Both the position numbers and the translations under genes were made by a program. From Sanchytrium tribonematis (Eukaryota), in contig JADGIG010000031.1 of the NCBI GenBank assembly GCA_018985235.1, positions 1-37,098 of the forward strand: a DNA stretch of 37,098 bases. The letters run 5' to 3'. Below the pieces are notes generated by a model. The model was given only the letters and a program-made list of their open reading frames with translations, ran no database searches and was not told the DNA's origin. This document shows positions 12,641 through 36,736 of this stretch, in pieces (position 1 is the stretch's first letter; each line of letters begins with the position of its first letter).

Positions 12641-15524
12641 TTAAGTGAGTAGTTTGAGATACTGTGGTTTGTAATTCCAGCACAGAAAATAGCTTCTAAA
12701 TTGTAAAGATTCGCGCCCTTCTTCTTCTATTATTATCGGAGCTCCCTGACGAGAACCAGTTTCCTTTTTTTTCCGCATATTCATAATATTCCTTAGATTT
12801 TCCATCCTTTGAACTGCGTATGGTGATATCTGATTTCCTTCAACTGCATTGGTGTACTGCTGCACTTGGTGTTGTATAACGGCTTCTGTTTTGTCGCTAC
12901 TACTGGATTTAGTGATCACACTTTCTGGTTTTAATGAAATTTTGTCGGCTGTCTCTGGCCTTGAAGTATCTTCTTTCAAAGACGATGCGCTCCTTCTGGT
13001 TCTTAATTCGTTTAATTTCTCTTGTGAGTAGCTAAACGCTATTAATTTTTTTTCTAAAATTTCAGAAATACTTCTGTCATCAAAATTATCTTTAAATCTT
13101 AATTTTAAGAGTTCATGGACCCCAATTCTAAATTGATGCCCAGTGCGACTTCCCATCCATAAGTGGCATGGCCTGGGAGACCCACAATCAATTAGAATTA
13201 TTTTTTCTTGGTCTAGAATTGATTGAGCAAGCCCAGTATATACGACAGTCAGTTCAATAGCTCTACAATCAACCAATCCTTTTGTCATCTCAAATACTAA
13301 AACAACAGGGAAAGGATTGGCCTGGGATTCGTTGCTAGCACCATATTCGCCTTTTCCTTTTAATGAATTCCAAAACGCATCAGTTTCTTTTTTCTCTGTT
13401 AAATAAGTAAGTGACGTTTTTCCAAGTATGACTTTTTCAATATCTACAGACGCTTTTGCTTCGTTATCAAGAAATCTAATCATATCATTTGCAGCTTCAA
13501 TGGCAAGTTTGTTTTCAGCCTTAGATGCACCACTTCCGGTCCAAATAGATGCCTGCTGACCATCTAATAGTAAATATACATATCTGCTACATAGACTTTG
13601 GGCTTCAAAATCTGTTTGAATCATTTTGACGCTTTTCATTGAAGGCTCAACAAAAAATTTAAACAACTTTTTTCGTATTTCTGGAGCATTGAAATATTTT
13701 ATATTGAATTTCAAAGACTGCTGTAGCAATATTGGCTCCTCAAAGGAGAAGACCCTTTCCATAGACGATTTGGTATGAAATTGCTGCTCTAAAAATTCTT
13801 TTAGGTCTTTTCCACTTGTATTTAAAAATTTGGACCACTTGATCGTACTACGCTGCCTTGATTGCCAATAATAAAGATGTATATTAATTTCGTCGTCGTC
13901 TTCCTCTTCCTCGTCATCATCTTTTCGGACTTTGGGTATTTGATACACTATGACAAAAACATAAGTATCATCTAAATTTAAAAATCCCTCCAAAGCCGCC
14001 TTGTATTTTACACAAGTAATATCATCTAATACCTTATAGCACTCTAGCGCAACTATGTTGATTTTACGTGGTGTAATTTGAGTATATGTCATATCTTTCA
14101 GACTCTTGTAAATTGCAGTTGAATTTTCATTATGAAGAGGTTTAAATTTAATATCTGGTTTTTTAATGTCAATTCGATCATACCAATCTGGAAATTTTAA
14201 CCGAAATAGTTCAGGTTCAAATCCCTCGAAAACTTTTCCGACAACCATCCACATTGGCCTAACTTGACTTCTCATACATGCTTTAAAACATTCCATTGCT
14301 TCTTCGATGTGGTATTTGTTGCATTTTTCGCCAATCCAAAGGTACAGCTCAACTGTGTTATCTAGGACAAAGCATTGATTTGTTTTTAGGTGTTTTTTTG
14401 TCAATGGTGGTTTTACTAGACAGTCCATCAAATCTTCTGTTTCTTCATCAATTCTAAATAAATATAAATTACATATATCCGATGTGACTTTGCGCAGCCT
14501 CGTACCAGTCTTTATCATTTAACATAATCAAGGACTGCAAACTTGCCATATTTTGCTTTGAGTGGTATACTTGCAGGCTATTTTCGACCTGCTCATCGTC
14601 TACTTCATTTAATGACTGCTTGGATAATTCCTCTGATTCGTTTTTGATGGGCAACAATTCTCGAAAGTCTCTAGGCTCAAAATCTTCTTCGATAACTTTT
14701 ATTTCTAGTTTTCCGCCTCGATTGTATTTTATAGTATTTGCAATCATAAAAGTTTTTGATTTTTCAACTAATGTCGCCTGCTCACCTTGCCATACATATA
14801 TAATTGTACCACAATCTATTATAAAAGCTCCGTCCGTTGTCAAAGAGTTCCGAAAAGGAGCCACTAAAATTCCTTGTGGATTCTTCTTTCCCACAATTTT
14901 GTATACTCGAATAAAATTATCGTCAATTCTGGGTTTTAAAGAACTTGGAACTGAATTCTCTTGATCATATTCGACAGAGAGACCATATATTTCTTCCCCG
15001 TCAAAATACTCTTCAGTTCGAAATATTTGCAAAAGTGCTCGGCAACCGACTGCCCATATAGTGGAACTAGTTTTTTTGTCAGCGGTTGCATTTGGGCCAA
15101 TCCATTTGCAAAATTTAACTTCTTCTCCTTCGGCTTTGAACAGTAGATAAGCATCGTATATGTTGAGTATAGAATAAGGGTAAGGGTTTGGAATCATATC
15201 TTCTATCCTATAAATATGTACACCTTCTTTTTTAACTTCTTCCATGTTAATATATATGCTTGTGTCAAGCATTAGTTGTTGGTGAAAGGTCAAGGGCTCA
15301 TCTTTTTCAATCACTTCTGCTGTTCTTCCTGCGGTGATGTATCTATTTTCTTGGATCACTGGAGAATTAATATTCGGCTCCGGTTTCTTTTTCAGTAACA
15401 TTTTGTCCATAACCGCGTTCTTCTTTACTTTAGGAAAATACGGCTTCTTTTTCTTGCTTCTATTTGTGTTTAAATCAAAGCTGACCTTTATTTCGTCAAT
15501 GGGTTGTAAAATTTTGTTTTTCAT
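12641..15524 (-). CDS. Flightless-I-like gelsolin-repeat protein without LRRs; two exons (15524-14473, 14453-12641), 954 aa
   Basis: WIGPNATADKKTSSTIWAVGCRALL, RVYKIVGKKN, IYVWQGEQAT and an acidic run before HLYYWQSR resemble the FLII gelsolin repeats as I recall them. Removing the 19-nt intron joins the two track ORFs in frame (SHIGYI-IDEETED). Confidence 0.85.
14454..14472 (-). other. 19-nt spliceosomal intron (phase 2)
   Basis: GTAATTTATATTTATTTAG. Removal fuses ORFs 14469..15524 and 12641..14518. Confidence 0.88.
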
Positions 15525-15859
15525 GTCGTGATGAAATGGGTAATTGTGGATGAAAAGTTATTTGTGTTGATGTAGAACAGCTTAGACGTGTATATAATAA
15601 ATAATACTTTGGATTAATGGTTGCAATGTATGAAACTATGATATTCAAGTTTTTTTATCAAATTTAAGGGGCATTCTGGAAAGTCTTAATTTTCGCGACA
15701 CCACTTTTCTGTTGTTCGATTATTTTGGGAAATTTATAAGTTTATTAAACAACAGGTTTAGCTCAACGTAGTGTATAGTGCTATGAGTCGCGAATGTTTA
15801 TATTCTTAGAATGACCAGTTGCTATTGAACCACTTCCATCTTTTAGGTCAATTGAATTG

Positions 15860-36011: not shown

Positions 36012-36183
36012 GCTGACATGAATTAAAATTAGGCTATATATTTTATTTAATTTGGATTATTGATAACTTATATCTTCTCATAAGATTTGCTCTCATCAAA
36101 TGTTTGATTTAGTAAAATTGCAAGATTTAATAAAAAACAAATTTATCTTCAGATCTGAAACACACTATTTACTTTACATTTCT

Positions 36184-36736
36184 ATGGGAGCCCTCTTTTC
36201 AAAGCTATTCGGAAGTATCAAAAAGGAATCTAGAATTTTAATATTGGGTCTTGACAATGCCGGCAAAACCACCATTTTATATCGATTGCAGTTGGGTGAA
36301 ATTGTTCAAACTGTGCCTACTATCGGCTTTAATGTTGAAACTGTAACTTATAAAAACACTACTTTTCAGGTGTGGGACTTGGGCGGACAAAGCAGTATCA
36401 GGCCATATTGGAGATGTTATTATGCCCAAACAGATGCAATCGTTTATGTAGTTGATAGTTCTGATCATGAAAGACTCAGTCTTGCACACTCTGAATTATT
36501 AGGAATGTTGGGTGAAGAAGAATTGAAGGGTGTGCTATTAATGGTTCTAGCCAATAAGCAGGATGTTCCTCAAGCAAAAAGTGTTGTAGACATAAGCAAT
36601 ACTCTAGGATTGCAAAAAGTAGTTTTAATTAATTAAGTTACAAGATAGAACTTGGCAGATTTTTAAATGCTCTGCCTTGACAGGCCAAGGTATACACGAG
36701 GCCTTTGACTGGCTTGTTGCTCAACTCAATAAATAA
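36184..36736 (+). CDS. ARL1: ARF-like GTPase Arl1; two exons (36184-36618, 36638-36736), 177 aa
   Basis: MG myristoylation start, [34 protein letters not shown]. Exon 2 gives [26 protein letters not shown]. Confidence 0.96.
36619..36637 (+). other. 19-nt spliceosomal intron (phase 0, AAG acceptor)
   Basis: GTAGTTTTAATTAATTAAG. Removal restores [14 protein letters not shown]. Confidence 0.93.

Follow-up and report, generated by a model that had tools for sequence, protein, structure and literature searches.

Seven 19-nt segments in a Sanchytrium tribonematis contig are probably spliceosomal introns of near-fixed length

How short, and how uniform in length, can the introns of a fungal genome be? 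The question is raised by a 37,098-nucleotide (nt) stretch of DNA from Sanchytrium tribonematis (contig JADGIG010000031.1 of assembly GCA_018985235.1, positions 1 to 37,098 of the forward strand; the whole stretch is called the window below), in which seven genes are each broken by a GT..AG segment of 19 nt. Sanchytrids are fungal parasites of algae. A preliminary description of the window, made from its letters alone, proposed that these segments are spliceosomal introns of one fixed length. Our analysis makes it quite probable that they are U2-type spliceosomal introns of a sanchytrid, held close to 19 nt, with a predicted lariat loop of 14 nt and a tail of 5 nt. Judging from related proteins, introns of this near-fixed length are very probably common to sanchytrids and absent from public annotation.

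All seven segments lie exactly where they had been placed, and in each gene removal of the segment leaves one open frame that runs to a natural stop, just as the preliminary description had claimed. Retention would bring a stop codon 1–62 nt past the donor in every case. Seven columns are fixed in all segments (G1, T2, A3, T12, A14, A18 and G19), a pyrimidine (Y) occupies positions 11 and 15 throughout, and A10 and T17 are each found in 6/7. The consensus reads GTA, six variable A/T-rich bases and then A-Y-T-N-A-Y-N-T-A-G, with an A+T content of 82% over the seven segments. The putative branch-point adenosine, A14, is a feature that the preliminary description lacked; it lies 6 nt from the segment end (position −6), within a motif that is fused to the acceptor. 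U12-type introns carry an extended 5′ consensus, RTATCCTT, and the branch sequence TCCTTAAC; columns 4–9 of the segments, being variable and A/T-rich, do not show it. The putative branch region can form 4–5 of 6 pairs with the GUAGUA motif of U2 (motif from PMC9505925; papers given by PMC number are cited for the parts of their text that could be consulted). At the sequence level the segments therefore look U2-type, combining frame repair by GT..AG removal with a branch adenosine in a U2-pairable context.

Is the common length a property of the segments or of the way in which they were chosen? The motif GTA..YTNAYNWAG was scanned over both strands of the whole window at lengths of 13–40 nt. 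It matched seven times at 19 nt, always on the coding strand and always at a gene break, and nowhere in the window at 15, 16, 18, 20, 21, 22 or 23 nt. A third-order Markov null gave about 0.7 matches per length, with a maximum of four at 19 nt in 60 runs. Because the motif was built from the same seven segments, the count at 19 nt is circular, but the zeros at neighboring lengths are not, and those at the in-frame lengths of 18 and 21 nt bear on the bias that stop-free introns leave genes unbroken. When held out one at a time, the segments ranked 1, 20, 1, 8, 10, 1 and 6 among 3744 GT/GC..AG candidates of 15–25 nt. No other option under 50 nt with both end motifs restores the frame of any of the seven genes. 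No other broken gene was seen among the 26 gene models of the window based on open reading frames (ORFs), a count that stop-free introns of 3n nt lacking the motif could escape. A weight-matrix scan of the window for missed 5′ or in-frame introns returned no sense-strand candidate above 12.1; the seven score 14.5–17.7.

Further evidence comes from relatives. Sanchytrid proteomes were called by TransDecoder, which models no introns, on genomic contigs (PMC8371127). All ten unspliced ORFs of the window that were queried are identical to public proteins, six of them being exon-1 read-throughs, and the two halves of the FLII-like gene are present in the public collection as separate proteins, so the expectation that annotation would miss these introns has been borne out. 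Since such calls read through introns, the tails of the proteins record intron sequence. In all 11 relatives, which come from other assemblies (6/6 for SAR1 and 5/5 for ARL1), family resemblance stops at the same codon. Five distinct tails cross the segment, namely P0007 and P0021/P0420 for SAR1, and P0009, P0139 (Amoeboradix gromovi) and P0141 for ARL1. For each of them, 19 nt is the one length at which an AG precedes a full exon-2 match in the restored frame, and it is the sole length among 14–30 that fits the motif, despite divergent interior residues. Together with P0419, a relative of the FLII-like protein, 6/7 informative read-through cases imply 19 nt, and length is held while the interior diverges at the SAR1, ARL1 and FLII sites; a shared register of this kind is a strong argument against assembly error. 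P0006 is compatible with 19 nt, and P0020, P0010 and P0011 end too early to inform. Some environmental records may represent one organism, as P0009–P0011 are 98–99% identical. P0021 has an ARL1-like N-terminus on a SAR1 body and is probably an assembly chimera, of which P0420 is the clean form.

In a SAR1 tree of 27 rows, the window protein, four environmental proteins and that of A. gromovi form one clade with 100/100 support, in a bootstrap not fully settled, on a stem of 0.36. A. gromovi is the closest named relative, with 93% identity in ARL1 and 71% in the exon-2 ORF of the FLII-like gene. By its proteins, then, the window organism is a sanchytrid (Sanchytriomycota), and frame repair, motif and relatives together make spliceosomal introns in a fungal genome very probable. 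On an A. gromovi contig the ORFs of SAR1 and ARL1 follow one another directly, and in the window too the two genes are close neighbors; the relatives of RPS15, SAR1 and ARL1 (P0002, P0020 and P0011) each list 10,121 nt as longest contig. Gene order across 33816–36736 appears to be conserved in relatives. A scan of metagenomes with SAR1 gave 12 loci, none of them close (best 78%), and scans of GTDB and of viral sequences found no DNA of relatives.

Homolog profiles speak for the junctions in ARL1 and SAR1. The ARL1 intron (36619–36637, + strand, phase 0, predicted branch A at 36632) separates exons 36184–36618 and 36638–36736. Against a profile of 98/115 homologs, those of 170–195 amino acids (aa), its removal scores 300.0 bits, a tie for best among 5278 arbitrary deletions, compared with 252.3 unspliced and 290.0 for the best 1-nt shift; exon 2 starts at Pfam Arf position 145, exactly where the exon-1 match stops. 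The SAR1 intron (34965–34983, +, phase 1, predicted branch A at 34978) separates exons 34475–34964 and 34984–35075, and its removal is the best GT/GC..AG option against 97/117 homologs, those of 180–200 aa (351.9 bits; 289.8 unspliced; 345.3 for a 1-nt shift). The gene for an LtrA-family membrane protein has its intron at 32460–32478 (−, phase 2, predicted branch A at 32465; exons 33686–32479 and 32459–31997). Pfam LtrA positions 2–209 fall in exon 1 and 213–339 in exon 2, collinear and gapless, and no alternative to the 19-nt segment up to 40 nt long would restore the frame. (In the LtrA and MscS clusters, the unrelated short representatives P0017 and P0262 were set aside.)

Three further genes bear the labels RIM15, YPP1/TTC7 and FLII from the preliminary description, for which Pfam gave kinase, TPR and gelsolin, respectively. 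The RIM15-like kinase gene is interrupted near its 3′ end at 20717–20735 (+, phase 1, predicted branch A at 20730; exons 17725–20716 and 20736–20914), the TPR protein gene at 24995–25013 (+, phase 2, predicted branch A at 25008; exons 22278–24994 and 25014–25143), and the FLII-like gene, which encodes gelsolin repeats of flightless/villin type, at 14454–14472 (−, phase 2, predicted branch A at 14459; exons 15524–14473 and 14453–12641). The seventh intron lies in a short-chain dehydrogenase (SDR) gene at 27946–27964 (−, phase 1, predicted branch A at 27951; exons 28706–27965 and 27945–27878), whose exon 1 ends at position 235/250 of the best model, PRK08251.

A number of observations weigh against the intron reading. 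The sample is seven introns in one 37-kb window, so that the 95% lower bound on the share of 19-nt introns is only 0.65. The introns of the window are read from genomic DNA and protein comparison, and those of the relatives from protein tails. No small nuclear RNA (snRNA) turned up in the window, where the sole RNA gene seen is an intron-less tRNA-Gly(GCC) at 35941–36011 (−). In SAR1, the 19-nt removal ranks 15/5278, as signal-free deletions of 22 and 19 nt score up to 3 bits higher. Exon 2 of the TPR gene matches TPR weakly, from profile position 6–7 on (E 0.015). Exon 2 of the RIM15-like gene, which presumably completes a receiver-like domain, has no family match in Pfam or NCBIfam, nor has the 21-aa exon 2 of the SDR gene, whose junction is the weakest of the seven by homology. 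In the SAR1 tail of A. gromovi (P0267), positions 18–20 form a stop codon, which excludes a 19-nt intron. Finally, in FLII an exon-2-frame reading of the segment scores 102.1 bits against 98.0 for the spliced form; that frame is open through the segment and aligns there with a gelsolin repeat, at its first strand.

The FLII case is settled in favor of an intron by the relative P0419. Upstream of the junction, P0419 read in the exon-1 frame is compatible with the window at 7/9 positions (background windows reach at most 6), compared with 1/10 identical positions in the exon-2 frame, and it keeps the 19-nt register. The ORFs of two other relatives, P0417 and P0418 (A. gromovi), begin only downstream of the break. 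Of 3000 simulated introns, 825 had no stop in the exon-2 frame, and 284 of these reached the score of the real segment. The frame of P0419, the starts of P0417 and P0418 and the simulation led us to reject two overlapping genes or an upstream junction at this site; the origin of the intron from coding sequence is not needed, as the intron motif alone yields gelsolin-like text.

The A. gromovi SAR1 tail bears on the claim of a fixed length. It fits the motif at 20 nt (also at 25, 29 and 30 nt) with the branch A still at −6, and the A. gromovi intron is therefore probably 20 nt long where the window and the other relatives have 19. Of the proposed fixed length, what stands is 19 nt in all seven window introns and at three sites held in relatives; what does not is invariance. 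We accordingly call the length near-fixed.

What holds the introns at this length? In the mechanism we favor, the 5′ signal would be reduced to GTA, U2 would pair with positions 9–15 leaving A14 bulged, and the acceptor would be the AG that ends 5 nt downstream of the branch A. The 13 nt from donor to branch would represent the steric floor of the lineage, at which deletion bias and a preference for the nearest donor would keep the introns; a model in which deletion bias brings introns down to a steric floor has been put forward (PMC10245619). The alternative is a hard caliper, a remodeled spliceosome that measures off about 19 nt from the donor and refuses introns of any other length, regardless of signal. 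A caliper has been proposed for nucleomorph introns (PMC6009652). Several features agree with the hard form: signals are so weak that held-out introns rank as low as 20/3744 without a length prior, length is kept among relatives while interiors diverge, and longer in-frame GTA donors share the acceptor in RIM15 (85 and 91 nt), SAR1 (121 nt) and ARL1 (52 nt), the last also having an in-frame 16-nt option. Of these, the two ARL1 options (52 and 16 nt) fall below the 19-nt removal when scored against homologs. The longer donors and the 16-nt option favor some preference for length or proximity, and with signals this weak recognition probably depends in part on spacing. However, nearest-donor choice and a floor predict the same pattern, and the probable 20-mer, with its branch A at −6, shows the donor-to-branch span flexing by one base of slack. 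Given the fixed branch A, the 3′ half of the apparent ruler would be ordinary branch-to-AG geometry, and its 5′ half either a steric floor reached through deletion bias or an enforced caliper. A steric floor with deletion bias explains the data as well as active measurement does, and we regard the hard caliper as unlikely, though a serious contender.

If the segments are not introns, the genes might be read by ribosomal frameshifting or translational bypass, the ribosome shifting frame inside the segment of an unspliced mRNA. The net shift required is identical in all seven breaks (19 = 1 mod 3), and the exon-2 frame of the FLII-like gene is open through the segment and gelsolin-like. That reading, however, follows from the intron motif, as the simulation indicates, in FLII and LtrA a stop follows the donor after 1 nt, relatives keep GT, AG and the branch A but not the residues of the segment, and no slippery site is shared. 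We consider this explanation very improbable.

Even less credence attaches to assembly or sequencing indels or pseudogenes with GT..AG segments arising by chance, which the same-codon breaks in 11/11 relatives from other assemblies largely refute. SAR1 is essential in yeast, a 1-nt shift is worse than 19-nt removal in both ARL1 and SAR1, and the motif is expected by chance only about 0.7 times per length per window. What can be said for an artifact is that the published sanchytrid genomes derive from whole-genome amplification (PMC8371127). Removal by the IRE1/tRNA-ligase route is about equally improbable: HAC1 introns of some fungi have a similar length (roughly 19–20 nt), but IRE1 cuts within CNG/CNG hairpin loops and its introns have non GT-AG ends, whereas all seven segments, 82% A+T and in unrelated housekeeping genes, have GT and AG ends and a U2-like branch motif.

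U2-type introns with so short a tail would have a consequence for the splicing machinery. In yeast, Slu7, Prp18 and Prp22 are dispensable for the second step when branch and acceptor are less than 7 nt apart (review, PMC3392075), and Slu7 is dispensable at 9 nt or fewer (PMC10158995); with a 5-nt tail, none of the three would be needed for exon ligation. The eggNOG labels of A. gromovi (supplement of PMC8371127), whose identifiers we take to denote the factors in question, include PRP8, BRR2, SF3B1, U2AF65, U2AF35, SF1 and U1-70K, as well as PRP40, PRP4, ISY1, CWC25, PRP22, DBR1 and UPF1. Among those listed in that part of the source, there is none for SLU7, PRP18, YJU2, PRP28, U1-C or PRP39. 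These are leads, not losses, as the proteome is fast-evolving and intron-broken and annotation gaps are possible.

Near-fixed introns of this size are known from three other lineages; what sets the present case apart is its fungal host, its length and its explicit branch point. A close likeness is with the heterotrich ciliate Stentor coeruleus, whose introns of 15–16 nt also start with GTA, are AU-rich, have a weak branch consensus and place the A at −6 with a 5-nt tail; its branch A stays anchored to the 3′ end in the rarer +1 class, and its lariat loop is 10–11 nt compared with the predicted 14 nt here (PMC9505925). Since one is an alveolate and the other a fungus, an independent origin may be supposed. 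Mikrocytos mackini, also a parasite with two adjacent length classes and a low intron density, has introns of 16–17 nt (217/224 at 16 nt) that are shorter and more conserved in sequence than those here, and a spliceosome of 17–19 proteins with only U2, U4 and U6 snRNAs identified (PMC10245619). A. gromovi keeps many more labeled factors, including U1-70K and U2AF. The nucleomorph introns of Bigelowiella natans are similar in size (18–21 nt) and AU-rich, but occur at 3.1 per gene, in a relict nucleus, without a discernible branch A (PMC6009652, PMC2483917); the sanchytrid window has seven introns in 26 genes and an invariant A at −6 in a main nuclear genome.

Within opisthokonts, the introns of myxobolid myxozoans, with medians of 22–27 bp, are together with those of Dicyema among the shortest described, the shortest animal medians being 22 bp (PMC13644364). 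Myxozoans are likewise parasites with a 5′ signal reduced to GTa; their introns, however, are longer, of several lengths, and the branch A moves with length (PMC13644364). Encephalitozoon cuniculi, another parasite with some of the shortest introns described, has them at about a third of 76 nt, and short microsporidian introns are 5′-biased and poorly spliced (PMC6349667). Yarrowia lipolytica, Trichomonas and Giardia share with the segments a fixed branch-to-AG spacing (in Yarrowia, as here, two bases between branch motif and AG), a branch motif fused to the acceptor and no polypyrimidine tract, but have a strong ACTAAC consensus in place of the degenerate YTNAY, and the introns of Yarrowia are long and variable, whereas here total length is fixed as well (PMC2483917).

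The window is gene-dense: about 91% of it lies inside the 26 gene spans, which are separated by a median of 104 nt. Its G+C content is 35.0% (S. tribonematis, 34.64%; PMC8371127), and its genes include ones for respiratory and mitochondrial proteins, COX11 among them. Packing is very tight: convergent genes share 4 nt at their stops (25140–25143) or almost abut, and gaps of 3–16 nt occur at 4612–4625, 5803–5806, 11868–11870 and 35076–35091. Seven introns in 33.6 kb of coding sequence correspond to 0.21 per kb, and a hand extrapolation to a coding complement of about 10 Mb gives some 2,000 introns per genome (Poisson range about 850–4,300). Relative positions, in coordinate order, are 0.37, 0.94, 0.95, 0.92, 0.72, 0.84 and 0.81, so that 6/7 introns fall in the last 30% of the coding sequence (Kolmogorov–Smirnov p = 0.01), the reverse of the 5′ bias that intron-poor genomes usually show and that is noted for microsporidian and cryptophyte nucleomorph introns. 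At n = 7, this skew is a lead only.

Some local features deserve mention. In the SDR gene, the same five bases close exon 1 and the intron, forming a direct repeat (27946–27969, −); this intron is the most G+C-rich of the seven and has the best branch motif, and its gene is closest to a bacterial model, PRK08251. The intron is possibly a recent gain. ORF 21902–22288 (+; 128 aa, no Pfam match) shares 11 nt with the start of the TPR gene and contains two 19-nt GTA..AG segments, both of them weaker (22110–22128 and 22178–22196), that repair nothing; an eighth intron joining it to the TPR gene was rejected, as stops persist in the required frame. In the MscS-like gene, an in-frame GT..AG segment of 18 or 21 nt at 31141–31161 (−) has a good 3′ motif but begins with GTG or GTC; it may be either a stop-free 3n intron or ordinary coding sequence. 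RPS7 (4051–4611, +) ends at Pfam position 181/182, presumably a few residues shorter than usual, and no 19-nt segment follows.

No report of sanchytrid spliceosomal introns was found in the literature covered, which took in few subscription papers and only part of the supplement of PMC8371127. In the text of PMC8371127 and PMC10459994 the word "intron" occurs only within a reference, and the accessible parts of PMC8476143 and PMC13685798 hold nothing on sanchytrids. Nor did we find, in a coverage without most subscription papers, a report of opisthokont introns this short; those described here are probably shorter than any so far known from fungi or animals. A bolder proposal, which we hold tentatively and think somewhat more likely wrong than right, is that all Sanchytriomycota have a caliper-like major spliceosome set at 19 (+1) nt, which would make their intron system the shortest among opisthokonts, with about 2,000 unannotated 3′-skewed introns per genome breaking about a quarter of genes, and that the fixed 5-nt tail allowed the loss of Slu7 and Prp18, and perhaps of Prp28 and U1-C.

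As far as the literature showed, these would be the first near-fixed introns of 21 nt or less found in fungi or animals, adding an independent origin to those of heterotrich ciliates, mikrocytids and nucleomorphs. Because the host is a fungus, the structures and genetics of the yeast spliceosome apply directly, and whether intron length is measured or floored becomes testable by comparing fungal Prp8, SF3B1, Cwc25, Isy1 and U2/U6 with their yeast counterparts. For the phylum itself, public proteins end at introns or are split in two (7/26 genes here), and protein counts and inferences of gene loss therefore need re-annotation.

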